A stretch of DNA of 64,000 nucleotides, from NCBI GenBank assembly GCA_964596775.1, contig CAZQVN010000002.1, positions 156,296 through 220,295 on the forward strand. The letters run 5' to 3'. Of the stretch, positions 4,767 to 32,161 are shown piece by piece (positions within the stretch are counted from its first letter, which is position 1; every line of letters begins with the position of its first letter). The notes beneath the pieces are model-generated. The model was not told the origin of the DNA, did no database searches, and worked only from the letters and a program-made list of their open reading frames with translations. Made by a program: the position numbers and the translations under genes. The DNA comes from an uncultured bacterium. GTDB taxonomy: Bacteria; Eisenbacteria; RBG-16-71-46; JABDJR01; JAWXBZ01.

Positions 4767-7700
4767 TCAGCGGATCATGGTCATGCTTCGGCTCTCGCGG
4801 CCGTGCGGGGTCGTGATGCTGTAGAAATAGACACCGGAAGAAACGGGTTGCCCGCTTGCGTCCATGCCGTCCCACCCGACTTCATACTCGCCCCCGGGCA
4901 TCGGGGAATCGACCAGGACTCTGACGAGCCGGCCGGTCGCGGAGTAGATGGAAAGTCGAACCGGAACGGTGGTCCCCGTCCGATCCGAGGTCTCGATCCG
5001 GTACGGGATTCTCGTCACCGGATTGAATGGGTTCGGGTAGTTCTGCTTCAGGACGTATGGCTTGATCCCGGCCGCCGGCGTTTCGGGAACCGCGGTCTGC
5101 AGGAACAGGGGTTCGGCCAGGTTTCCCGTGTGGCGTGCGTCGTGATGAAACATCGGCCAGGGACTGGCCATCTTGTTGAACGTCCACGGAGTGTCCCAGA
5201 TGTAGACCTTCTGGTCGAAGGATTCGGCAACGATCTCGGTCAGGCCGTCGCCGTCCAGGTCCCAGGCCGCCGGGCCACCTTCGATCAGGTTGCCGGTCTG
5301 GATGGGGAAGCCGGGAAGTTTCGTCCCGTTGGCGTAGAAAGCATGAAGCCGGCCTTCCTGGTCTCCGACGATCACCTCGGGAACGCCGTTGTTGTCCACG
5401 TCGACCAGGATCGGGCTGGAGCGTACCGGAACGTTCTGGCCGAGGTTGTTCGTGATGATGACGGGCCACCCGGCCAGGATGGCGCCGGTGTTCCGCCAGG
5501 CGAAGACGCGACCGTTCGAGGCGCCACAGACTATGTCCGGTATGCCGTCACCGGTGAGGTCCCCGACCGCCGGGGAAGAGTCGAAATCCTCGTTCATCGA
5601 AATGCCCTGCGGCCATCCCGTCACCATGGTGCCGTTCGCCTTGAGAACCTGCATCTGGATGCTGGTGGAAGTGCTGGCAGCGACGACGATATCGGGCTGG
5701 CCGTCGTTGTCGATGTCGGCAACGGCCGGCGACGCCGTGATGTTGCCTCCGGCGCTGTAGGGGAATCCCGGCATGTTCGCACCGGTTATCGGATTCATCA
5801 CGTACACCTTGCCGTCCCGCATTCCGCAGATCAGTTCCGGCATTCCGTCTCCGTTCAGATCGGCGAGCGCCGGCGTTGCGTAGGAGTAGGCCGTGGGGGT
5901 CAGGCGCAGGACACCGATCGTCGCGGGGTTGGAATCCCCGTCGACGATTTCCGTTCCATCGTGATGAAATCCGAAAATGGCCCGAGCGCACTGAACGAAC
6001 AACTCGAGGTCGCCGTCGCCGTCCACGTCGCCCATGGTCACCGATCCGAGCGGATTCGGGTCGATCAGGGACTGGACGTTCAGATTCTTCGGCCAGCCCG
6101 GCTTGATCTGCCCCTTGTTGTTCCAGAGGTAGAGATTCGTCGGCCAGGAAACGGCCGCCACATCCGGAATGCCGTCCGGTTCGACATCACCGACCGCCGG
6201 GGCGTTCCAGAATCCGAATCCGCCGGTGTTCGTCAGTGGTCCGAGGGTCCGGATGTCGCCGTCGCCGTCGAAGAATTCCTCGCCGTTCGGCTGAAGGGCG
6301 TAGACTTCCTCGGCCCCGGCCAGGATCTCGATATCCCCGTTGTAGTCGAGGTCGGCGAGGGTCACCGATGCGTTCGTCGCCGCGGTCAGCTCCACCGGGA
6401 AGCCGGGATGAATGGGAAGCGTGGTGGATGCGGATGCCTCGACCGACAGCGGTCCCTCGATTCCCGCCGAATCCTGGGGGGCGACCTTGTAATAGAAAAC
6501 CGAGAGCGGCGGAAGCCCTTCGTCGTTGTAGTAGGCGGTCCGCTTCGTCGTGTACTGATTCACCCGTGTATAGGGGCCACCCATCGTCGCGCTTCGATAG
6601 ATGTTGTAACCGGCGAGGTCGGCGGTGGACACCGGGTCGAACGTCAGGGCGATCGAACCCGTGGATCCAATGGCCTTCATGCCCGACGGGGCGAACAGCG
6701 GTCCTACCGGATCGATGAGAATCGTGGCCAGGGGCGTGGACGGACTGTAGGTGTCATGGAAGTCCACGAACATCCGATGCGCGCTTGTGGCGGCCCCGGT
6801 CGTGTCGACCATGCGGAATCCGAACGTGTCCGTCGGAGGGCGCGATACCGCACGCGTTCCACCGGCGATCGTTCCGAAGTCGACGACGCTGTCCGTCAGG
6901 ACAAAAACGGGATCCGTTGAGCGGAGCTTCGCGATGATCGAGCGCGCCTGCCCGAGTCCGCCGTTGCGGAGTTCCACGCGGAGCCGGATATCCTCGTTCG
7001 GCTCGACGATGTTGTTGGAGTTGCCCGTTCCCGTCGTGTCACGCACGAACATCCGGTGCCACTCGAAGACCGGGGCGTGAACATACAGCACGATGTCCTC
7101 GACGATCGTTGCGGCCCCGGATACGTACGTCATCCGGACTTTGGCTTCCGTGCGGTCCGGGGCGGTGCGGCCGACCGTGAAGACGATCGGGTCCGCGGGG
7201 TTTCCTGCGGCTCCGGATCCCAGGGCCGCGTACGTCGATGTGGAGTCGGACACGGTGATGAAAGGCGACAGGGACGTCATTGTCGCCGTGATCGCGGCTC
7301 CGGTAGCCCCGCCGCGGTTGCGGAGCGGCAGGGACAACTCGATGGTCTCGCCGGAATCGATCTTGCCGTCGGAGTTGCCGAAGCTGGCCCCGGTGGCATT
7401 GTCGTCGATCACCTGGCTCGTGGCATGGAGATAGGGCGTGACCGGCGTGGTGACGGTGCCCGATCCCAGGTAGGGGATCTTGTTGTCGGCCACCACGGTC
7501 ACCTGGAAGGTTCCGGTGGAGTCGGGAACGAACGACAGTACGGCGTTCCCCGAGGCGTTCGTGTATCCGACCACGTACTCGTCATTGGCCTTGTTGATGC
7601 AGACGCGCGCGGAGTCGACCGGATTGCCGCCGCTCAGGACGCTGACGGAATAATTGGCGGTGCCGAGCGGATGCGTGGCGCTGTGCGAGACAGCCAGCGG

Positions 7701-9611
7701 CGCCGGCGAAACCGTGTAGATCGGCATCGACGGATCACCGAAGTAGATCTGGGTGAACTGGGTCCAGCGGTGCGTGTTGTCCTGGGACGAGAGTGGAATG
7801 AAGGGGAGCTTGCTGTCCGACTCGGCACGGCCGAGTTCGTGAATCCCGGCCTGGAAAACCAGTCTGTAGAATTCATTCTGGTAGGACCACCCCGTGGACG
7901 GAAAATCGAACCGGGTCGACCCGACGCTCGCCACGGAACCGCCGTTCGGGTTCAGCAGGTAGCGTTCCGCGATGCAGTTGAAGTCGATCGCCGAAGAGGT
8001 GCAGTTGATGGCATAGAGAAAGAACGTCTCGTCGCCGTTGGACGCGGCGTCCGCGTCCGCGTTCGTCAGGGCCTTGTCGTCCTTTCCGACCGCCATGGTG
8101 TTGATGTAGCCGTGTCCGACGTGATGGACGATCCCGTAACCGGCGTTGATGGAGTCCACGACGGTCGGCTTGTCTTCGAGTATGCAGGTCGGCCACGCGG
8201 CGTGCGGACAGCGTTCGTACAGCTTCGTGACCGTCCAGTTGCCGGGCAGGTAGGAAATGGCGCTCTGGCAGACGTCGGCCCCGTCGAACAGAACCGAATC
8301 TCCGGGCGAATAGTTCTGGGGGAAGAGCACTTCACCCAGGGCCAGGAAATCGTCCTGATAACCGTTGGCCTTGGGTGCCATCTCGTAGGCGAGGATCTTG
8401 TTGACGACGTGCATGGCCTCGGTCTGGGTGATCGTGGAGAGGCGCCCGATCCAGACTTCGGGGTAGAGGTCCGCGGCGTCGCCTGGAATCAGGGTGGAAC
8501 CGAAGCCCTCGCCGTACTTGGCGTCGCCGTCGGCGTTCCAGGTGCCGTCCACGCACTGGTAGTAGAGGTCGGTGGGAATCTCCTCCCCGCCGAAGAACAA
8601 CGTGCGTCCGTAGCGGGTCGGAATCACGTCCGTGTCGGCGCCGAGAAGTACCCACACGGTGCCCCACTTCTGGGCGGCGTCCCGGATGAAATTGCGGATC
8701 GTTTCCTGCGTGTCGCTCCCGTTCGGGTAGTTCTGCTGGATCCAGGCGACGGTGCGCACCACGGTCGGGATGCCCGAGCGTGTCTTCCAGTCGGCAAGGC
8801 GCTGATACTCCGGTTCCATGACCGAGTTCGTGATGATCACCATTTCCACGGGGCTGCCGTTGACCGACGGCCGGAAAGTGGGGGCGAACGGGGCGCCGCT
8901 GTTGGTGAGGGGACGCAACTCTCCCTCGGACTTCCGGGCGGCCGATGCCGGCGTCCCATTGATCGCGAGGTTTTCGGCGAGCTGTCCGAACGTGGCATCC
9001 GCCCATGGTTCACGGCGGAGCGGGACGAAGTCCTGGGACCGGTCGCGATCGTCTTCCGCCAGGCGCACTTCGATTTCGATTCGGGTTACGAGGTCCAGCC
9101 GGGATTCCCGCTCAATGAACCGGAACGGGGTCACGATCACTCCGCCGAGAGTCCGCCCGCGCATGCGACCGGTCGTGCCCGGTCGCACCAGTTCGGCCGG
9201 ATAGGCGCCTTCGCCATCGAGGGCCATGGGGGCGGCGGGAATATCCAGCATCCGTCCATCACTGTTCACGGTTCGGTAGACCGCGGGACTGAAAAGTCCC
9301 TTGAGGGTCCTGGATTCCAGGACCCGCGCCGTCGCGCCGTCGACTTTCATCCCTTCCGGAAGGCGGAACGTGATCGGAAGGACCGGCAGGTCGGGCGCCC
9401 CTTCCACGCCGGAAATAGTCCCCCCGCGAAGATGGATGACATCCGTGCCGCCCCTCCTGACGATCGAAACATCAGAAGGGGAGATCTCCACGACCTGTCG
9501 GAGGATCAGCGGTTCCCCCCCCAGCGCGGGTTCGGGTCCGATGGTTCCAAACGTGACTGCTGCGGCCAGGAGGAAACAGGAAAACAACGAGCGGCGGGAG
9601 GAATGAGTCAT
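4767..9611 (-). CDS. Secreted gingipain-like cysteine peptidase (C25 family) with FG-GAP repeats and a T9SS C-terminal sorting domain
   Basis: 1620-aa ORF (4767..9629). Start chosen at ATG 9611 (MTHSSRRSLFSCFLLAAAVTFG..., preceded by GAGAGG). N-terminal signal peptide with an SRRSLF twin-arginine-like stretch. C25-like catalytic region ...YGIVHHVGHGYIN... / ...FFLYAINCTSS... Multiple FG-GAP/VCBS-like repeats (DLNGDGMPELI, DIDNDGQPDIVV, DLTGDGIPDIVCG, DVDNNGVPEVIVG, DLDGDGLTEIVA). C-terminus KQNYPNPFNPVTRIPYRI...GVYFYSITT is the T9SS type-A CTD signature. Confidence 0.6.
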   Translation of the reverse strand: MTHSSRRSLFSCFLLAAAVTFGTIGPEPALGGEPLILRQVVEISPSDVSIVRRGGTDVIHLRGGTISGVEGAPDLPVLPITFRLPEGMKVDGATARVLESRTLKGLFSPAVYRTVNSDGRMLDIPAAPMALDGEGAYPAELVRPGTTGRMRGRTLGGVIVTPFRFIERESRLDLVTRIEIEVRLAEDDRDRSQDFVPLRREPWADATFGQLAENLAINGTPASAARKSEGELRPLTNSGAPFAPTFRPSVNGSPVEMVIITNSVMEPEYQRLADWKTRSGIPTVVRTVAWIQQNYPNGSDTQETIRNFIRDAAQKWGTVWVLLGADTDVIPTRYGRTLFFGGEEIPTDLYYQCVDGTWNADGDAKYGEGFGSTLIPGDAADLYPEVWIGRLSTITQTEAMHVVNKILAYEMAPKANGYQDDFLALGEVLFPQNYSPGDSVLFDGADVCQSAISYLPGNWTVTKLYERCPHAAWPTCILEDKPTVVDSINAGYGIVHHVGHGYINTMAVGKDDKALTNADADAASNGDETFFLYAINCTSSAIDFNCIAERYLLNPNGGSVASVGSTRFDFPSTGWSYQNEFYRLVFQAGIHELGRAESDSKLPFIPLSSQDNTHRWTQFTQIYFGDPSMPIYTVSPAPLAVSHSATHPLGTANYSVSVLSGGNPVDSARVCINKANDEYVVGYTNASGNAVLSFVPDSTGTFQVTVVADNKIPYLGSGTVTTPVTPYLHATSQVIDDNATGASFGNSDGKIDSGETIELSLPLRNRGGATGAAITATMTSLSPFITVSDSTSTYAALGSGAAGNPADPIVFTVGRTAPDRTEAKVRMTYVSGAATIVEDIVLYVHAPVFEWHRMFVRDTTGTGNSNNIVEPNEDIRLRVELRNGGLGQARSIIAKLRSTDPVFVLTDSVVDFGTIAGGTRAVSRPPTDTFGFRMVDTTGAATSAHRMFVDFHDTYSPSTPLATILIDPVGPLFAPSGMKAIGSTGSIALTFDPVSTADLAGYNIYRSATMGGPYTRVNQYTTKRTAYYNDEGLPPLSVFYYKVAPQDSAGIEGPLSVEASASTTLPIHPGFPVELTAATNASVTLADLDYNGDIEILAGAEEVYALQPNGEEFFDGDGDIRTLGPLTNTGGFGFWNAPAVGDVEPDGIPDVAAVSWPTNLYLWNNKGQIKPGWPKNLNVQSLIDPNPLGSVTMGDVDGDGDLELFVQCARAIFGFHHDGTEIVDGDSNPATIGVLRLTPTAYSYATPALADLNGDGMPELICGMRDGKVYVMNPITGANMPGFPYSAGGNITASPAVADIDNDGQPDIVVAASTSTSIQMQVLKANGTMVTGWPQGISMNEDFDSSPAVGDLTGDGIPDIVCGASNGRVFAWRNTGAILAGWPVIITNNLGQNVPVRSSPILVDVDNNGVPEVIVGDQEGRLHAFYANGTKLPGFPIQTGNLIEGGPAAWDLDGDGLTEIVAESFDQKVYIWDTPWTFNKMASPWPMFHHDARHTGNLAEPLFLQTAVPETPAAGIKPYVLKQNYPNPFNPVTRIPYRIETSDRTGTTVPVRLSIYSATGRLVRVLVDSPMPGGEYEVGWDGMDASGQPVSSGVYFYSITTPHGRESRSMTMIR

Positions 9612-24404: not shown

Positions 24405-25805
24405 CTAGAACCTGAAAGTGGCCGTCCCGACAATGCGGTTGGTGGTCCACTTTTCGGAAATGTTTCCACCGCTGCGCTCGTACGTTCCGTGGATGTAGGC
24501 CAGATCGAGCGTGACCGTTTCATCCACAAGAGTTCCCGCTCCGAGGGTGATGAACGAACGGTCCGTGGTGATGTCGGCATCGGGGTAGTCCCTGGTGAAA
24601 AAGGATGCGTCATCCGTGGTGTTCGCATTGCCGTCGTCGGGGACGAATGTGAAGTCGATGTCGGCTGCCTGCAGGCGATAGGGAAGCGGCTGACTGGAAA
24701 ATCCGACCCGCAGGCGGGTCGGGTGGACCGGAAGCTGGTACTCGGCGCCGAGATGAACGTCGAGTGTTCCTCGATACGCGTTCTCCCGGTCCTTCTGGAC
24801 GGTTCCTTCGAAGTCGATCTGCGTCCAGTCCGTCACCCGAAAGTCCGCAGCAAGCAGAAAATTGCGGGGAGTAATCGCCAGGGAAGCCAGCAGGCTGATC
24901 GGAAGAGTGATCACATCCTGGAAAAATGTGTTGGCGTTGTCGATCTTTTCCTGGTCCTCGAAGCGCGTCGAGGCGACTCCATTGAACTCGTAGCGCTGGG
25001 GGAGATCCACGGTCAGGGCGACACGAACCCTGTCCGAAGCTCTGGCCAGGGCCCCGATCGAACCGGTAAAGCCCGTCAAGTCAGCGTCTCGGATTTCGCT
25101 GGAAAGAAACACTTCATCGGATCCCTCGACGTCAAACGGTCCTGAGCCCGATCCCCGCAGGCGCCCGATCTCGAAGTCCTGGAGGGTGTTGCCCTGGATG
25201 TAGGTCAGGCTGGCTCCCAGCGAAATGTGGGGAGAAACATCGCCGGCGAGTCCGGCGGTCCAGAAGTTCACCGAGCCGTTCTCGGTGAACGACTCGGTCT
25301 CGTGGATGCCGAACTGCGATGAGTTCGCGCGCCTGAGGGAACCTTCGCGATAATAATCACTCTTGAGCGGGGCAACTCGCTGATAGGCCAGACCCATGAC
25401 CAGGGATCCACGATACGTTGGAAAGGGATAGGCGAGACTCAGATGGCTTACCTGCGTCGCACGGGATTTTGCTCCGCTGGACGTTGTTCCCGTGCCCGCA
25501 AATCCATCGGTGGCCGTATCGAACGTTACTTCCCGGTCCTGGGAGTCGTGCACCAGTCCGCCGGATATCTCGATGCGCCTGATCTGTGCCAGTCCGGCCG
25601 GATTATAGAAAAGACTGGATCCATCCTCGGCAACGGCTCCGTAGGCAAAACCCATCCCTGCGGAGCGGGCGCCGATCCCCATTCTTGAAACAAAGGGGAG
25701 TTCCGGAAGCACGACGCCCTCCTGGGCGGGTGCAGCCGCGGGCGTTACCGCCTGAAAGAATGCCGCGAGGGCGAGGAGCCCCGGGAAACACCTGTGACGC
25801 TGCAT
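24405..25805 (-). CDS. FadL/TodX/OmpP1-family outer-membrane beta-barrel protein
   Basis: Start at ATG 25805 preceded by GGAGGCAGGAGCAGT. Signal peptide MQRHRCFPGLLALAAFFQAVTPAAAPAQ. FadL-family hatch motif SLFYNPAGLAQ. C-terminal ...GTATFRF (terminal aromatic beta-signal). T9SS PorV proteins are also FadL-like, so a PorV role is possible but unsupported. Confidence 0.6.
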   Translation of the reverse strand: MQRHRCFPGLLALAAFFQAVTPAAAPAQEGVVLPELPFVSRMGIGARSAGMGFAYGAVAEDGSSLFYNPAGLAQIRRIEISGGLVHDSQDREVTFDTATDGFAGTGTTSSGAKSRATQVSHLSLAYPFPTYRGSLVMGLAYQRVAPLKSDYYREGSLRRANSSQFGIHETESFTENGSVNFWTAGLAGDVSPHISLGASLTYIQGNTLQDFEIGRLRGSGSGPFDVEGSDEVFLSSEIRDADLTGFTGSIGALARASDRVRVALTVDLPQRYEFNGVASTRFEDQEKIDNANTFFQDVITLPISLLASLAITPRNFLLAADFRVTDWTQIDFEGTVQKDRENAYRGTLDVHLGAEYQLPVHPTRLRVGFSSQPLPYRLQAADIDFTFVPDDGNANTTDDASFFTRDYPDADITTDRSFITLGAGTLVDETVTLDLAYIHGTYERSGGNISEKWTTNRIVGTATFRF

Positions 25806-25865
25806 ACTGCTCCTGCCTCCAGCTTGATGGTGTATTTCAATTTCGTTTCGAGGGATGGGCACCGA

Positions 25866-26471
25866 TCAGCCGTCCTTGCCGGAACGACTCTTCTTCGTCG
25901 AGTCCTCTTTCTTCCCGCTGTCTTCATCAGGGTCTTTCTTGTCCTGGCTCTGCTGTTCGCTCCCCTTCTTCATTGTTCGTCCTGGCTGCTGACCGGGAGT
26001 GTCCGGTGTGCCGCCGGGTGGGTTCGAGGAGGACCCCGGTCCGGAGGGACCCGGTCCGGGAGATGTGTAGACAGGAGGAGGAGTCGGGGCCGTCGAGATT
26101 CCGCGGCCCCAGACATGGCGGACATCGTCGTTTCGATTCCCGGCGCCTCCGGAGTAGCTGCCGCCGCCACCGCCGCTGCCGCCCGAGTCGCCGTAGTACC
26201 AGAACTGCCGGTACCACCAAGGGTAGGCATAGTACGGATAGTAATTGTCATTGTAGTAGTCGAACGCGGGAGCGTAGAGCGGGTCAATGGCCTGGGCAAA
26301 ACCCTGGTCCTGGTGGCAGTCAAAGCAGTCCCGTCGTCGTTCCCCTCCGTCAGCGACCTCGGCTGTCGGTGGGTGCTTCAGAACGGTGTAGCATCCACCG
26401 AGCGCGGCCGCCGAAGCGATCAGCAGCACGCCGGCCAGCGTGCGCGTTCTGGGGTCGCTCCACACTCGCAT
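25866..26471 (-). CDS. Lipoprotein with CxxCH motif, Tyr/Trp-rich segment and Gly/Pro/Ser-rich tail
   Basis: Signal + lipobox LIASAAALGGC. DCFDCH (CxxCH, c-type heme-binding motif). YYNDNYYPYYAYPWWYRQFWYYG. Low-complexity GGSGGGGGSYSGG...PPPVYTSPGPGPSGPGSS. Lies 60 nt upstream of the FadL-like gene on the same strand. Confidence 0.5.
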   Translation of the reverse strand: MRVWSDPRTRTLAGVLLIASAAALGGCYTVLKHPPTAEVADGGERRRDCFDCHQDQGFAQAIDPLYAPAFDYYNDNYYPYYAYPWWYRQFWYYGDSGGSGGGGGSYSGGAGNRNDDVRHVWGRGISTAPTPPPVYTSPGPGPSGPGSSSNPPGGTPDTPGQQPGRTMKKGSEQQSQDKKDPDEDSGKKEDSTKKSRSGKDG

Positions 26472-26849
26472 GGGAAGTCCCGCCTTTCCTGGGAAAAGGT
26501 GCTGATAAGGGCGGAGCTGAACTCACACCGGAAGAAATCGGTTTCGGATAAGGAACATCCGATTTTCCTGCGGGTTCGGACTTATTCCAGCCCCGGTTGA
26601 ATGGATTCACGGCTTTTCTGCTCAGGCATGATTCAGTATAGTCGCGCGGCGTCGGTGCTTCGACGCGCGCTGCTACGTTGTAAAACCTTGCCGTTGAGTC
26701 TATTATGCTGGATAGATCGCTCCGGGACAACCCACAACCGTGTCCCGGCGCCGCTGCGCCGCGTCGGGTGGTTCGCTGGATACGAGGGAACCACCGCGAC
26801 TGGAACTTGGGGAAAGAACATGTGTTTACGCTTGGGAGGATGACCAGAG

Positions 26850-27470
26850 GTGGCGTCGGTGCCTGAAAAGACCCCAGGGGTCAAATTCGATCAGGTGTCC
26901 GATGAGGACCTGATGGACCATTGCGTCGACGGCTCCGAGCCCGCATTCAAGGAGTTGGTCAGACGTTACAAGACGAGGATAATCAACCTCGTCTACCGGT
27001 TCATCCGGGATCACCAGCGAGCCGAGGATCTGGCGCAGGAAGTCTTCGTCAGGGTCTTTCTGCATCGCGAGAGGTATCGGAAGAGCGGCAAGTTTTCAAC
27101 CTGGATATTCACGATTGCCGTGAACCTTGCGAAGAATGAGATCAGAAGGAAAGCGAGGCTCAGAAACGTGCTGAGCCTGGAAGGACTTCAGGAAATTGCG
27201 GGCTCATCCGGTTTTTTCCTGAAGGATAACAAGCCCGGAACGGACCGTCGCCTCGAGCGCGATCAACTTGGCGGGCTTGTGACCAAGGCCATCGAGAAGC
27301 TGCCCGAAAGATACCGGATGGCCCTGATTCTGCGCGATATCGAAGGCCTGTCCTATGAGGAGATCGGCGACATTCTGCAGATTCCCGGGGGAACCGTGCG
27401 TTCCAGGATCAACCGGGCCAGGCTCATGCTGAAGGAAAAGTTGAAACCCCATGTGAGGACAGGTGCATGA
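26850..27470 (+). CDS. ECF-type RNA polymerase sigma factor
   Basis: Region 2: DGSEPAFKELVRRYKTRIINLVYRFIRDHQRAEDLAQEVFVRVF. Region 4: LPERYRMALILRDIEGLSYEEIGDILQIPGGTVRSRINRAR. Start uncertain (GTG 26850, GTG 26859 or GTG 26895). Confidence 0.8.
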   Translation: MASVPEKTPGVKFDQVSDEDLMDHCVDGSEPAFKELVRRYKTRIINLVYRFIRDHQRAEDLAQEVFVRVFLHRERYRKSGKFSTWIFTIAVNLAKNEIRRKARLRNVLSLEGLQEIAGSSGFFLKDNKPGTDRRLERDQLGGLVTKAIEKLPERYRMALILRDIEGLSYEEIGDILQIPGGTVRSRINRARLMLKEKLKPHVRTGA

Positions 27471-28045
27471 TGAATTGCAACAATGTGCAGGACATCTTTT
27501 CGCTCATTCTCGAGGAAGAGGCCAGCGCGCGCGAGTTTTCCGACTTCAATAATCACCTTGCCGACTGCCCCGGGTGCCGCAGTGAATTCGAGGTTTTCAA
27601 GGTCACCAGTGACCTGGTCCGGACGATTTCTCCGATCGACCCGACCCCGGGATTCGAAGACCGTGTCCTGGCACGGATCCGGGCGGCCGGTTCAGCTCCG
27701 GCGCCTCTTGAGTTTCCGGTGGAGCGGAGCGATGAGCGCCTTTCGGGAGGATGGTTTCCACGGCTGGGTCTTGCGGCGGCGGCGGCGGTTCTCGTGGCAG
27801 TATCCTTCCTTGCGCTGCAGGGAACGAATCAGGGGCCTGGTTCCCAGATGGCCGTCCGTGAGGACCGGAGCGTGGTTACTCTGAAGGATCGGCTTCCCGA
27901 TCTGCCTGACGAGGTCGTTGACGCCCTGAACGAGGAAAGCTTTGTCCTCGACAGGATGGTCGTCCGTCCCGGTTCCGGCGAGGGGAATGCCCGGGTCGTG
28001 GCTCCGGTCGGTTATGAGAATGGTCCCGTTTACGTGGCGTTCTAG
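27467..28045 (+). CDS. Anti-sigma factor, zinc-finger (ZAS/zf-HC2) type, single-pass membrane
   Basis: ATG overlaps the sigma stop (ATGA). HLADCPGCRSEF (H-x3-C-x2-C). One TM segment LGLAAAAAVLVAVSFLAL. Periplasmic C-terminal domain. Confidence 0.7.
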   Translation: MMNCNNVQDIFSLILEEEASAREFSDFNNHLADCPGCRSEFEVFKVTSDLVRTISPIDPTPGFEDRVLARIRAAGSAPAPLEFPVERSDERLSGGWFPRLGLAAAAAVLVAVSFLALQGTNQGPGSQMAVREDRSVVTLKDRLPDLPDEVVDALNEESFVLDRMVVRPGSGEGNARVVAPVGYENGPVYVAF

Positions 28046-28048
28046 CAT

Positions 28049-29308
28049 ATGCCCTTCCTGCCTCAAATGATCCGAACTCCCGGCGTTGTCGGGATTGTTC
28101 TGGGTCTGGCCGTGCATCTCGTCTCTCTTGTTCCGGAACAGGCCCGCGGGCAGTCGGCCGGAACGGGCATCGACAATTTCGAGCGCGAAATTCTGGATGT
28201 CGTGGGCAGGGCTCGAACTTCGGTCGTCAGCATCGAGGCACTGGTGGAGCAGGATCGCGGGGCGGGCATGGGCAGATCCCAATCCGGAAAACTCCCCCCG
28301 CGAAGAATCGGTTCGGGGATTGCGATCAGCGAGGACGGCTGCATCGCAACGACCGCGTCGATCGTCGACGGCGCAACCACGATCATGGTGCGAACCCCGT
28401 CCGGCGAGACGCGAAAAGCCGGACTCGTCGGAATAGACAGGCGCACCAACATTGCCCTCATTTCCTGCCAGGCCAAGGGGATGCCTGCGGCGAGGCTGGG
28501 AGACTCCAGCCTGGCCCCGCCCGGCGCCCGGGTTGTCGTGGTGGGCAGTTATCCGGTCGCTTCGCCCCTCTGCTCCTTCGGTACGATCGTTCTGGATCGT
28601 GGGCTCGTCTGGGGTTACTCCGAGGTTGAAATGCTCCAGGTCAGCGCCCCGGCCAAGGGAGTCAACAGCGGATCCGCGGTCGTCAATGCCGAGGGGCGCG
28701 TGATCGGCATGGTGTCCGGCGTCTACGACGAATCCGTGACCGGTGGTCGACCCTCGTCTCCTCCAGGGATTTCCGGATACATTTTCCAGAATCGGGTGGC
28801 CGCGTCGCCGCACAACGACGCTTTCTTCGCGGTTCCCATCGAGAAGGTCCTGGACATTGCCGCCGAGCTGAAGGAGCGGGGACGGGTGGACCGTGGTTTC
28901 CTGGGGATCATCGTCCAGAAGGATGAGCAGGCCTCCTCCAGGGGGGGAGTCGTGGTTCGGGACATTCTTCGCGGCGGTCCGGCTTCGGTGGCGGGAATCC
29001 AGGTCGGAGATGTGATCCTTCAGTACTCCGGCCGCAATCTGTCCATCGGGGATGACCTCACGTTCCTGGTCACCGCAACCCGGCCCGGCTCGCTTGTGGG
29101 GTGTCAGATCAAGCGGGGGAACGAGCAACTCCGCCTTGTGGAAGTGGTCATCGGACGAGCCCCGAACAGCTACGCCTGGCTTCCGCGCGAACTCGACCCG
29201 TCGCTTCCGGCGGAACGGCTCTGGCCCGAAGATGCCCCGGACCTCGTGCCCGCCAATGGGCGGGCCGGCGAGTCCACCACCGGGGTCGGCAAGAAGAAGC
29301 GCCCCTGA
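28049..29308 (+). CDS. HtrA/DegP-family trypsin-fold + PDZ protein, catalytic triad apparently degenerate
   Basis: Signal/TM at N-terminus. Trypsin fold GSGIAISEDGCIATTASIV...NIALIS...KGVNSGSAVVNAEGRVIGMVSG. PDZ GFLGIIVQKDE...VAGIQVGDVILQYSGRNL. Compared with E. coli DegP from memory, the His position (TNNHVV) reads TTASIV and the Asp position (DIALIQ) reads NIALIS; Ser is retained. Confidence 0.7.
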   Translation: MPFLPQMIRTPGVVGIVLGLAVHLVSLVPEQARGQSAGTGIDNFEREILDVVGRARTSVVSIEALVEQDRGAGMGRSQSGKLPPRRIGSGIAISEDGCIATTASIVDGATTIMVRTPSGETRKAGLVGIDRRTNIALISCQAKGMPAARLGDSSLAPPGARVVVVGSYPVASPLCSFGTIVLDRGLVWGYSEVEMLQVSAPAKGVNSGSAVVNAEGRVIGMVSGVYDESVTGGRPSSPPGISGYIFQNRVAASPHNDAFFAVPIEKVLDIAAELKERGRVDRGFLGIIVQKDEQASSRGGVVVRDILRGGPASVAGIQVGDVILQYSGRNLSIGDDLTFLVTATRPGSLVGCQIKRGNEQLRLVEVVIGRAPNSYAWLPRELDPSLPAERLWPEDAPDLVPANGRAGESTTGVGKKKRP

Positions 29309-29334
29309 CCGCAAAAACCGCAAGGACCCTGCGG

Positions 29335-30540: not shown

Positions 30541-31014
30541 ATGCGAATCGAAGAGGTCCGAAAACTAGTAAAGCTCGTGGAGGAGAGTGAGATCGGCGAG
30601 CTGGACGTGTGGAAGTGGTGGGGTCGCATTCGGATTTCCAAGAATTCTCATGGAGCCGGAAACGGAACGGTCACATTTGCCGCTTCGGCGCCGCCTCCGG
30701 AGAAGCACACCGTTGAGGCACCCGCCGGGGGCACCCCCCGGCCGGAACCGAAGGCAGCCGAGAGCACCGACGGACTGACCCCCGTCAAGTCACCGATGGT
30801 CGGCACGTTCTACCGGACCCCGGCACCCGATGCGGATCCCTATGTGGAACCTGGAGATGTGATCGAAGTCGGTCAAACGATCTGCATCATCGAGGCCATG
30901 AAACTCATGAACGAGATCCAGGCCGAAATCCGGGGCAAGGTCGTTAAGGTTGTCGCGGCGAACGGCCAGCCCGTCGAGTTCGGGCAGGTCCTTCTCCTGG
31001 TCGACGAGTCCTGA
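30541..31014 (+). CDS. accB: Biotin carboxyl carrier protein of acetyl-CoA carboxylase
   Basis: C-terminal lipoyl/biotinyl domain SPMVGTFYRTPAPDADPYVEPGDVIEVGQTICIIEAMKLMNEIQAEIRGKVVKV (EAMKLMN biotinylation motif). Pro/Ala-rich linker. Confidence 0.85.
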   Translation: MRIEEVRKLVKLVEESEIGELDVWKWWGRIRISKNSHGAGNGTVTFAASAPPPEKHTVEAPAGGTPRPEPKAAESTDGLTPVKSPMVGTFYRTPAPDADPYVEPGDVIEVGQTICIIEAMKLMNEIQAEIRGKVVKVVAANGQPVEFGQVLLLVDES

Positions 31015-31045: not shown

Positions 31046-32161
31046 GTGAATATCAAGCGGATCCTCGAACGGATGATCGAAGAAAGGGCGTCCGACCTTC
31101 ACATAAAGGCCGGAACCGCCGCTACCATTCGCGTGGACGGCCGCCTGATCCCGCTGGATGAACCGATCCCGAGCCAGAAGGACATCGAGACGGTCATGGA
31201 GCAGATCCTCACTCCGAAGCAGAGAAAGCACTTCGAGGACTCGCGCGAGATCGATTTCGCGTTTTCCATTCCAGGGCTGTCCCGCTTCCGGTCGAACTTC
31301 TACCAGCAGCGCGGCACGATCGCCATGGCGCTTCGCCAGGTTCCGTTCGGCGTGCCCAGCCTCGAGGAACTGTGCCTTCCCGCCACCCTGGGCGACCTGA
31401 TTCTGAAGAGCCGGGGGATGATTCTCGTCACCGGCACGGTCGGCACCGGCAAGTCGACATCGATGGCCTCTATGGTTCAGCACGTGAACCGGACGACCCA
31501 GAAGAACATCATCACCGTCGAGGATCCGATCGAGTTTCTGCACCGCGACGACAAGAGCCTCATCAGCCAGCGCGAGGTCGGTCTCGACACGGCTTCGTTT
31601 CACGACGGGTTGAAATACATTCTCCGCCAGGATCCGGACATCATCATCATCGGGGAAATCCGCGACATCGAGACGATGCGCGTTGCGGTCATGGCCGCCG
31701 ACACGGGCCACCTCGTCGTGGCCAGTCTCCACACGCCCGATGCATCGCAGACGATCAACCGGATCATCTCCTTTTTCCCGCTGCACGAGCATGAAGAAGT
31801 CCGCTACCTGCTCGCGTCGAATCTTCTCGCGGTCGTGTCCCAGCGGCTCATACCCCGCAAGGAGGGCTCGGGCCGTGTCCCGGCGGTCGAGATCATGATG
31901 AACACGGCCACGATCAAGGAATACATCATGGATTCCAAGAAGACCTCCGGGATCTACAAGGCGATCCAGGAAGGCGTCAACCAGTACGGGATGCAGACGT
32001 TCGACCAGGCGCTGATGTCGCTCTACAAGAAGGAGCAGATCAGCTACGAGGATGCCATCCGCTACAGCTCGAACCCCGCCGAGTTCGACCTCCGGGCCCG
32101 CGGCATTCACGCGGCTTCCGACAAGACCTGGGAGCAGTTCGAGGGCGAAGCACTGCGCTGA
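31046..32161 (+). CDS. pilT: Type IV pilus retraction ATPase PilT (twitching motility protein)
   Basis: MNIKRILERMIEERASDLHIKAG...Walker A GTVGTGKST...IITVEDPIEFLH...IIIIGEIRDIETMRVAVMAADTGHLVVASLHT (His box)...AHAASD. Matches PilT/PilU rather than PilB (no N-terminal GSPII domain). Confidence 0.8.
   Translation: MNIKRILERMIEERASDLHIKAGTAATIRVDGRLIPLDEPIPSQKDIETVMEQILTPKQRKHFEDSREIDFAFSIPGLSRFRSNFYQQRGTIAMALRQVPFGVPSLEELCLPATLGDLILKSRGMILVTGTVGTGKSTSMASMVQHVNRTTQKNIITVEDPIEFLHRDDKSLISQREVGLDTASFHDGLKYILRQDPDIIIIGEIRDIETMRVAVMAADTGHLVVASLHTPDASQTINRIISFFPLHEHEEVRYLLASNLLAVVSQRLIPRKEGSGRVPAVEIMMNTATIKEYIMDSKKTSGIYKAIQEGVNQYGMQTFDQALMSLYKKEQISYEDAIRYSSNPAEFDLRARGIHAASDKTWEQFEGEALR

Follow-up and report, generated by a model that had tools for sequence, protein, structure and literature searches.

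A degenerate HtrA homologue is a conserved third gene of predicted autoregulated ECF sigma/anti-sigma operons in candidate bacterial phyla

Results

A three-gene module comprising a sigma factor, an anti-sigma factor, and an HtrA-like protein

This study analyzed a three-gene module in a 64,000-nucleotide stretch of DNA from an uncultured bacterium (contig CAZQVN010000002.1, positions 156,296 to 220,295; the whole stretch is called the window, and all coordinates refer to it). The closest named genome is a metagenome-assembled genome of Candidatus Eisenbacteria. The three genes lie on the plus strand (26850..29308) and encode, in this order, a sigma factor of the extracytoplasmic function (ECF) type, a zinc-binding anti-sigma (ZAS) factor, and an HtrA-like protein. 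On comparative sequence evidence, the HtrA-like protein is a degenerate member of its family that is maintained by selection, and it forms the fixed third gene of an apparently autoregulated ECF sigma/ZAS operon in at least two candidate phyla. The sigma and anti-sigma genes overlap by 4 nt and the anti-sigma stop codon is separated from the HtrA-like start by 3 nt, suggesting translational coupling; the gene junctions at orthologous loci consist of a 1-nt overlap or a 2-nt gap. The original prediction had described this layout as an ECF sigma factor, a ZAS anti-sigma factor, and an HtrA homologue with a PDZ domain, and the domain matches and the predicted fold both confirmed it.

Among bacterial alternative sigma factors, the ECF family is the largest, and to our knowledge envelope sensing by their anti-sigma factors is understood for only a few models. 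The sigma factor of the module (26850..27470, plus strand; 206 aa with a GTG start) was classified as RpoE/SigW-like by using Pfam and NCBIfam. It contains Sigma70_r2 (8.8e-20, residues 36-103) and Sigma70_r4_2 (4.4e-18, residues 144-194), and thus has the composition of a group 4 sigma factor, with only the sigma2 and sigma4 regions in approximately 200 aa. The NCBIfam model TIGR02937 (sigma70-ECF) matched with 111 bits against a cutoff of 42.9; the best equivalog, RpoE (TIGR02939), reached 145 bits, under its cutoff of 236 bits, and SigW reached 139 bits against 209. Stop codons upstream of the gene, in both the window and the orthologous locus L008, fix the start at the GTG codon and show the promoter stretch to be non-coding. 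The sigma factors of the Eisenbacteria-type loci are 82-84% identical to the window copy, and those of the distant modules described below are 40-72% identical.

The HtrA-like protein lacks a canonical catalytic triad

The third gene (28049..29308, plus strand) encodes a 419-aa protein comprising a signal peptide, a trypsin-like domain, one PDZ domain, and a disordered tail, as determined using Pfam and an AlphaFold2 (AF2) model. The trypsin-like domain matched Trypsin_2 (9.5e-21), and the PDZ domain (28889..29134) matched PDZ_2 (1.6e-10, residues 283-362). A Foldseek search with the AF2 model (pLDDT 75, pTM 0.71) yielded TM scores of 0.83-0.87 to MucD, AlgW, and DegS, and the combination of one protease domain with one PDZ domain is the architecture of the envelope-stress HtrAs. 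The carboxylate-binding loop of the PDZ domain, RGFLG (28892..28906), is intact; R282, G283, F284, and G286 of this loop are invariant in the orthologues, and the corresponding sequence in the Zixibacteria-type proteins introduced below is KRGYLG.

By contrast with this intact PDZ loop, the active site is degenerate. Ser104 (28358..28360) occupies the position of the catalytic His, with TTASIV aligned on TNNHVV, and Asn134 (28448..28450) occupies that of the catalytic Asp, with RTNIAL aligned on the D(L/I/V)A motif. The GNSGG motif is replaced by VNSGS (28661..28675; VNSGSA aligned on GNSGGP), in which the nucleophile Ser207 (28667..28669) is kept and the oxyanion-hole Gly is changed to Val205. 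One hallmark of the MamO-type pseudo-proteases is that this position is occupied by a residue other than Gly (PMC4794232). The protein therefore has the S1C/HtrA fold, in which one or more PDZ domains follow a chymotrypsin-fold domain, but not the His-Asp-Ser triad and the GNSGG motif, and in MEROPS terms it is a non-peptidase homologue. We refer to it as the pseudo-HtrA. Matches to Pfam PF00089 were present among canonical HtrAs and absent in the pseudo-HtrA family. An insertion of approximately 30 residues in the L2-loop region (28730..28822), identified from the alignment and the model and absent in canonical HtrAs, is lineage-specific and contains a conserved GYI(Y/F) hairpin; G243, Y244, and I245 are invariant, and the model places strands at residues 243-246 and 249-252.

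The triad columns were determined using HMMER alignments to solved MucD, DegP-like, and DegQ chains, a MAFFT alignment of 23 sequences including seven canonical HtrAs, and an hmmalign alignment of 267 sequences. These methods agreed with one another and with the earlier reading of the triad from the sequence (His to Ser, Asp to Asn, Ser kept). Misalignment was ruled out, because the MucD and DegQ structures, the canonical HtrAs, and the 267-sequence alignment all identified the same columns.

The degenerate positions are shared by all orthologues and are under purifying selection

A search of 5.8 billion proteins yielded an orthologue set (P0001-P0017) with scores of at least 227 bits and identities of 46-73%; the next match scored 126 bits. 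The positions of Ser104 and Asn134 were occupied by Ser and Asn in all 16 full-length orthologues. The nucleophile Ser was kept in 4 of the 16, and the other 12 carried GH[IV]GAP. The non-catalytic nature that had been proposed for the window protein is strengthened by this loss of the nucleophile from most of its relatives. The residue pair at the nucleophile position (residues 206-207, window 28664..28669) was observed to co-vary: 4 orthologues have either Asn or Ser followed by Ser, and 12 have His followed by Ile or Val. More than 100 alignment columns are invariant in the orthologues, including TTAS, DRRTN, and GYSEVEMLQ in the neighborhood of the former active site as well as RGFLG. The ratio of nonsynonymous to synonymous substitution rates (dN/dS), estimated by the Nei-Gojobori method for the closer orthologue pairs, was 0.10-0.22, indicating purifying selection on the pseudo-HtrA.

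An artefact or a decaying gene would be suggested by the degenerate triad itself and by nothing else, and we consider its probability negligible. Independent assemblies from many samples show the same substitutions, the reading frames are uninterrupted, and neither the invariant columns nor the dN/dS values fit decay. Because the substitutions are common to all 16 orthologues, a sequencing error and a unique defective copy, which had been named as a check on the original prediction, are excluded; a pseudogene was likewise refuted by the orthologue alignment and the dN/dS values.

The same alignments bear on whether the protein could be a non-canonical protease, in which Ser207 would act as the nucleophile together with another general base and would perform a dedicated site-1 cleavage of the anti-sigma tail. 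Such catalysis is very unlikely, because the nucleophile is lost in most orthologues: the 12 proteins with Ile or Val at this position are encoded in the same operon, next to an anti-sigma factor with the same tail. The retention of Ser207 in the window protein, the presence of Ser and GNSGGP in 46 of the 60 Zixibacteria-type members, and the fixation of Ser104 and Asn134 without drift are in its favor. It is opposed, in addition, by the Val at the oxyanion-hole Gly of the window protein, the feature that marks the MamO pseudo-protease; moreover, no column that is invariant in the broad alignment contains His or Lys, and the anti-sigma factor offers no assisting His in its periplasmic part.

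The sigma/anti-sigma/pseudo-HtrA trio occurs in distant lineages

Every Eisenbacteria-type locus with enough flanking sequence exhibited a fixed gene order, namely acpP-fabF-rnc, then a FadL-like and a lipoprotein gene on the opposite strand, and then the module, which is followed by aroB, accB, a pilT-like gene, and accC downstream of sigma, anti-sigma, and pseudo-HtrA. In the relative L002, 39% identical, the layout is the same, one further gene follows the pseudo-HtrA gene, and the triad positions hold Gly/Asn/Thr. The short contig L003 and its anti-sigma protein P0277 are labelled Thermoanaerobaculia (Acidobacteriota), although at 45-53% identity to the window proteins they are in other respects closely related to the Eisenbacteria-type module; the label may reflect a binning or taxonomy inconsistency.

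A wider-family profile search covering 1.84 billion representatives revealed that the tight family is small and that many of the best-scoring remote matches are degenerate as well. Ser-Asn-Ser was the commonest triad state among them, and GNT, GNS, NNS, SDS, and others were also observed. The genomic contexts of six remote proteins were looked up. P0123 (Ala/Asn/Ser, 35% identity) has a full Eisenbacteria-like neighborhood plus a DUF4837 gene; P0147 (Ser/Asn/Ser, 28% identity, Zixibacteria by name) is preceded by a sigma gene and a zf-HC2 anti-sigma gene; P0184 and P0134 belong to sigma/anti-sigma/pseudo-HtrA trios in unrelated outer contexts; P0214 lies between an anti-sigma gene cut by the contig end and a DUF4837 gene; and the contig of P0153 is too short for its context to be judged.

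A metagenome scan with the Zixibacteria-type alignment then yielded 60 loci. None of the 60 encodes His-Asp-Ser, and 46 encode Ser-Asn-Ser. A ZAS anti-sigma gene lies directly upstream of the pseudo-HtrA gene in 48 of the loci, and an ECF sigma gene was found upstream in all 39 loci that have at least 1.5 kb of upstream DNA. These counts overstate the number of independent events, because many loci are closely related; the set still comprises approximately 30 distinct tail variants of the anti-sigma factor and several outer contexts that are unrelated to one another. The wider distribution of the trio is an addition to the original prediction, as is the aromatic anti-sigma terminus described in the next section.

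Two further features of the relatives were observed. A DUF4837 gene directly follows the pseudo-HtrA gene in L011 (4760..5770) and L014 (2071..3126), and L002 has an extra open reading frame (ORF) of 342 aa (6994..8022) in the same position, where the window has aroB; no paper mentioning DUF4837 turned up in the literature searched. The Zixibacteria-type pseudo-HtrAs (P0136, P0142, P0147, P0148, P0186, P0188, and those of L019-L078) carry a C-terminal, heptad-like extension rich in Leu, Glu, and Lys that, to judge from its residue pattern, is probably a coiled coil, and the Eisenbacteria-type proteins are without it.

The anti-sigma factor ends in an aromatic, outer-membrane-protein-like tail

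The second gene (27467..28045, plus strand) encodes a single-pass ZAS-type anti-sigma factor of 192 aa, consisting of a cytoplasmic domain (residues 1-75), a transmembrane helix (approximately 97-118), and a periplasmic tail (approximately 120-192). It matched the NCBIfam anti-sigma model (1.4e-13), and its Pfam zf-HC2 score was 19.2 bits, under the cutoff of 22.2 bits. The H-x3-C-x2-C zinc motif HLADCPGC (residues 30-37; 27554..27577) is evident in the translation. C4, H30, C34, and C37 are invariant across the orthologous anti-sigma factors (H30, C34, and C37 in 6 of 6 sequences), and the protein has the sequence features of a class I ZAS factor, namely the zinc motif with a putative upstream Cys ligand in a helical N-terminal domain. 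The AF2 model comprises this helical domain (pLDDT 80-97), the transmembrane helix, and a periplasmic part of low confidence (pLDDT 34-63), which contains the residues that are most conserved. A tail that is poorly modelled yet conserved is typical of a linear motif that depends on a partner, a weak argument here because the alignment is shallow.

The anti-sigma factor terminates in PVYVAF-COOH (28025..28042), whose conservation and likeness to the beta-signal of outer-membrane proteins (OMPs) make it a candidate PDZ ligand. All 12 homologues found in the protein search carry the C-terminal sequence PV[YT]V[ATS]F, in which P, V, V, and F do not vary. The Eisenbacteria-type tails display the hydrophobic alternation V-Y-V-T-F of the OMP beta-signal, and the tail resembles the ..VYQF peptides that, according to the structure titles, were co-crystallized with DegS. 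The anti-sigma factors of distant modules end in VVVTF, TVVTF, VPITF, VPVRF, IDGGF, or KTDY. Among the Zixibacteria-type anti-sigma factors, 46 of 48 end in Tyr (35) or Phe (11), compared with 13 of 176 control ORFs (7.4%), the controls being the remaining ORFs at those loci with a length of 150 aa or more. A second motif, [YF]V[LIM][DEP], lies approximately 25-30 residues before the C-terminus in 44 of the 48. Weakly related ZAS anti-sigma factors without a pseudo-HtrA partner have different C-terminal ends.

A conserved, predicted ECF-type promoter precedes the module

A GGAACTT box at 26802..26808 (plus strand), which had been proposed as a -35 element approximately 45 nt upstream of the sigma gene, proved to be conserved, to lie 48 nt before the GTG start, and to have a -10 region at fixed spacing (GTGTTTA, 26822..26828; GTGTTGA in orthologues, core TGT). 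It is followed by the Shine-Dalgarno sequence GGGAGGA (26834..26840), 9 nt before the GTG codon. All seven orthologous loci contain the pattern TGGAACT[TC]-N12-[TC]GTGTT[GT]A at a distance of 48-49 nt upstream of the GTG, with TGGAACT and GTGTT invariant and the spacer unconserved; GAGGAT-N9-GTG was likewise invariant in all seven. The predicted transcript start is near the Shine-Dalgarno sequence and would leave a very short leader. Of the 39 distinct regions upstream of sigma genes in distant modules, 26 contain GGAAC-N16-TGT, versus 1% of shuffles, and the TGT core is at identical spacing in 25 of these 26 promoters. The sigma factor is thus predicted to transcribe its own operon from a GGAACTT-N14-TGT promoter. 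A cognate anti-sigma gene that appears co-transcribed, together with a putatively autoregulated promoter with an AAC -35 element, is characteristic of ECF sigma factors.

The original prediction had further suggested that the module is regulated jointly with the divergent operon at 24405..26471 (minus strand), a possible regulon member composed of lipoprotein and FadL/PorV-like genes. A candidate ECF-type promoter of that operon, CGAAC-N16-TGTT, was read from the window sequence at 26555..26578 (minus strand), and 6 of 7 loci carry GCGAAAC-N15-GATGT[TC] on the minus strand, 67-97 nt upstream of the start of the lipoprotein gene. This motif fits the AAC/TGT core within 1 nt of spacing, which makes co-regulation plausible, and all Eisenbacteria-type loci, L002, and L011 share the divergent arrangement. 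The conserved layout and the AAC-N16/17-TGT sequence before the lipoprotein gene thus favor the suggestion; the strict pattern, however, occurs only once, the sigma operon promoter being the only match in the window with at most one mismatch. Joint regulation is plausible but unproven. Further regulon promoters in the window were rejected, the matches with three mismatches being unconvincing.

A block containing TATAG(T) and a CTAAG..ATGCCGTTCAA-like sequence was also observed in 7 of 7 orthologous intergenic regions (window 26637..26801, plus strand), 127-165 nt upstream of the -35 element. This block may represent a distal housekeeping promoter and leader of the sigma operon.

Neighboring genes

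The lipoprotein gene of the divergent operon (25866..26471, minus strand) encodes the lipobox LGGC and a single CXXCH motif. The motif is conserved, being CFDCH in the window, CYSCH in L001, and CASCH in L002, and it is followed by a low-complexity region rich in Tyr, Trp, Pro, and Gly; the protein has no match in Pfam or NCBIfam. The adjacent gene (24405..25862, minus strand) encodes a FadL/PorV-like outer-membrane barrel that matched Toluene_X (8e-9), gave weak NCBIfam matches to BamG and to the N-terminus of PorV/PorQ, and ends in ..TATFRF. The lipoprotein may be a haem-binding or redox partner of the barrel.

On the other side of the module, a pilT-like T2SSE ATPase gene (31046..32161, plus strand) lies directly 3' of an accB-like biotin-carrier gene (30541..31014, plus strand), and at orthologous loci the pilT-like gene lies between accB and accC. 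A hairpin at 29318..29334, just past the pseudo-HtrA stop codon, has a terminator score on the minus strand only. The terminator scan identified none on the plus strand between the pseudo-HtrA gene and aroB; the operon may therefore read into aroB. The Rfam scan of the window returned zero matches.

Discussion

Comparison with the RpoE and AlgU systems

The module resembles the rpoE-rseA-rseB-rseC operon with DegS in Escherichia coli and algU-mucA-mucB-mucC-mucD with AlgW in Pseudomonas aeruginosa. These systems likewise possess an RpoE-like ECF sigma factor that is autoregulated from a GGAACTT-type promoter, a single-pass anti-sigma factor, and a one-PDZ HtrA, and the structures that the pseudo-HtrA matches best are those of their proteins MucD, AlgW, and DegS. 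The sigma operon includes an HtrA homologue in P. aeruginosa (mucD) as it does in the window. The differences are nevertheless substantial. The anti-sigma factor of the window is of the ZAS type rather than the RseA/MucA type, the module contains no RseB/MucB or RseC genes, and its HtrA homologue is without the His and Asp (and, in most orthologues, the Ser). One PDZ domain with an intact loop is present, as in the site-1 proteases DegS and AlgW, but the triad is absent, and a pseudo-HtrA that is missing these residues cannot be a site-1 protease or a degradative MucD. The PDZ domains of DegS and AlgW read C-terminal YxF/WVF peptides (PMC8103513, PMC8545111); in the window, the aromatic C-terminus is on the anti-sigma factor itself and not on OMPs or MucE.

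The likeness to MucD raises the question of whether the pseudo-HtrA is an output of the response, that is, a protease-dead chaperone or holdase effector of the DegP/MucD kind that is co-transcribed for induction only and exerts no control over the anti-sigma factor. A protease-independent chaperone activity is described for the HtrA family (PMC8671199, PMC12826053), and degP is a classical member of the RpoE regulon (PMC8103513). The location of mucD in the algU operon, the rank of MucD as best structural match, and the autoregulation predicted for the operon are also consistent with this explanation. It leaves unexplained, however, why the anti-sigma factor alongside a pseudo-HtrA invariably ends in an aromatic residue and why, in outer contexts that differ, the pseudo-HtrA gene always directly adjoins the anti-sigma gene in tight coupling. 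The single PDZ domain is of the DegS/AlgW architecture, and the residues of a dead triad would be expected to vary freely, yet Ser104 and Asn134 are invariant. We therefore regard a chaperone role as rather unlikely.

Comparison with magnetosome pseudo-proteases

MamO of magnetotactic bacteria is an HtrA/trypsin-2 pseudo-protease that promotes the proteolysis performed by its partner (PMC4794232). Similar to the pseudo-HtrA, MamO and the inactive MamE paralogues have a degenerate triad, a non-Gly residue at the oxyanion hole (position 193; Val in the window protein), and non-catalytic roles. MamO carries a TauE transporter domain and a di-His metal site, functions in magnetosome biomineralization, and has no link to a sigma/anti-sigma pair; no Pfam match to a TauE domain was found in the pseudo-HtrA. 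In the MamO triad, His and Asp are present and the nucleophile position is occupied by Thr, whereas the window protein has Ser/Asn/Ser. Because its nearest relatives are other ECF-linked degenerate HtrAs, the pseudo-HtrA clade is, as judged from sequence relationships, independent of MamO.

A mode of action similar to that of MamO would place the pseudo-HtrA in hetero-oligomers with a catalytically active HtrA or site-1 protease encoded elsewhere, or have it activate that enzyme allosterically. The active enzyme would then cleave the anti-sigma factor, with the PDZ domain of the pseudo-HtrA as the sensor. No second HtrA gene was found within the 64-kb window or in the flanks examined, and the conserved unit is a trio and not a quartet. 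These observations make such an activator improbable, even though the promotion of MamE-dependent proteolysis by MamO (PMC4794232), the trimeric nature of HtrAs, and the intact PDZ groove of the pseudo-HtrA are in keeping with it.

A proposed role for the pseudo-HtrA

Taken together, these findings indicate that the pseudo-HtrA is probably a non-catalytic, dedicated signalling partner. For the module as a whole, we narrowly favor an autoregulated envelope-stress module with a DegS-like pseudo-protease that binds the C-terminus of the anti-sigma factor. In the mechanism that we propose, the periplasmic pseudo-HtrA would cleave nothing. Its intact PDZ groove, possibly together with the former active-site cleft, would clamp the disordered periplasmic tail of the anti-sigma factor (PVYVAF-COOH), and the resulting complex would stabilize or shield the anti-sigma factor. 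The C-termini of unassembled OMPs would compete for the PDZ domain, and a tail thus freed would be subject to site-1 and site-2 proteolysis, which would release the sigma factor. The specific proposal that the PDZ groove clamps the tail and that OMP C-termini compete for it is tentative, with somewhat less than even chances of being correct.

The proposed role would be that of RseB/MucB, which is likewise a periplasmic protein encoded right after the anti-sigma gene; it binds the periplasmic domain of the anti-sigma factor and gates its proteolysis. RseB and MucB differ in that they have no sequence or fold relationship to the pseudo-HtrA, and no RseB-family match was found for the window proteins in Pfam or NCBIfam; the likeness would be functional.

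Several observations weigh against the binding mechanism. Most Zixibacteria-type members (46 of 60 with Ser-Asn-Ser) retain Ser and GNSGGP, which a pure scaffold does not obviously need, and this retention, similar to the invariance of Ser104 and Asn134, is left unexplained. The Zixibacteria-type tails (e.g., SKVRKVY and QKTDY) are OMP-like in the last residue only. The aromatic end could instead be recognized by some other protein, for example a tail-specific protease or a genuine DegS encoded elsewhere in the genome. Finally, the data throughout are comparative and derive from metagenome assemblies of uncultured organisms.

A bolder extension of the binding mechanism, which we consider doubtful at present, is that Ser-Asn-Ser HtrA-like proteins are a widespread and so far undescribed set of periplasmic proteins that co-regulate RpoE-like ECF sigma factors in candidate phyla of the FCB group, that is, "pseudo-DegS" binding switches. 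In Eisenbacteria, Zixibacteria, and relatives, a proteolytic switch would have been turned into a binding switch. The anti-sigma factor would be held by a tail that mimics the OMP beta-signal and released by the C-termini of real unassembled OMPs, and the Ser and oxyanion hole that are retained would clamp the peptide without hydrolyzing it.

Significance

The sigma/anti-sigma/HtrA order, the presence of mucD in a sigma operon, and HtrA pseudo-proteases in magnetosomes (PMC4794232) are already known. In the literature searched, no degenerate HtrA was described as a constant partner of ECF pairs or in an ECF operon, and an aromatic anti-sigma tail of the kind found here appears, as far as that literature shows, to be unreported. 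Public annotations designate the pseudo-HtrAs "serine protease Do" or "S1C family serine protease", and these designations are probably wrong with respect to function.

The order found in the window, ECF sigma factor, ZAS anti-sigma factor, and HtrA, is also that of sigE/rseA-htrA-tatB in Mycobacterium tuberculosis. The RseA protein of M. tuberculosis is cytoplasmic. In contrast to the pseudo-HtrA, the M. tuberculosis HtrA is an essential and active serine protease, and tatB follows in the operon. RseA is controlled through its redox state and through phosphorylation with degradation by ClpC1P2, not through a periplasmic tail, and the reason for the linkage has been called still difficult to understand (PMC10027907).

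The present findings add a third, invariant component to such modules, a catalytically dead HtrA paralogue that occurs at dozens of loci in at least two uncultured phyla. The promoter and the sigma/anti-sigma pair could serve as an orthogonal regulatory part. If the clamp model is true, the scaffold of a site-1 protease would be convertible into a pure sensor or co-anti-sigma factor, and the puzzling linkage of sigma, anti-sigma, and HtrA genes, including that in mycobacteria, would gain a testable rationale.

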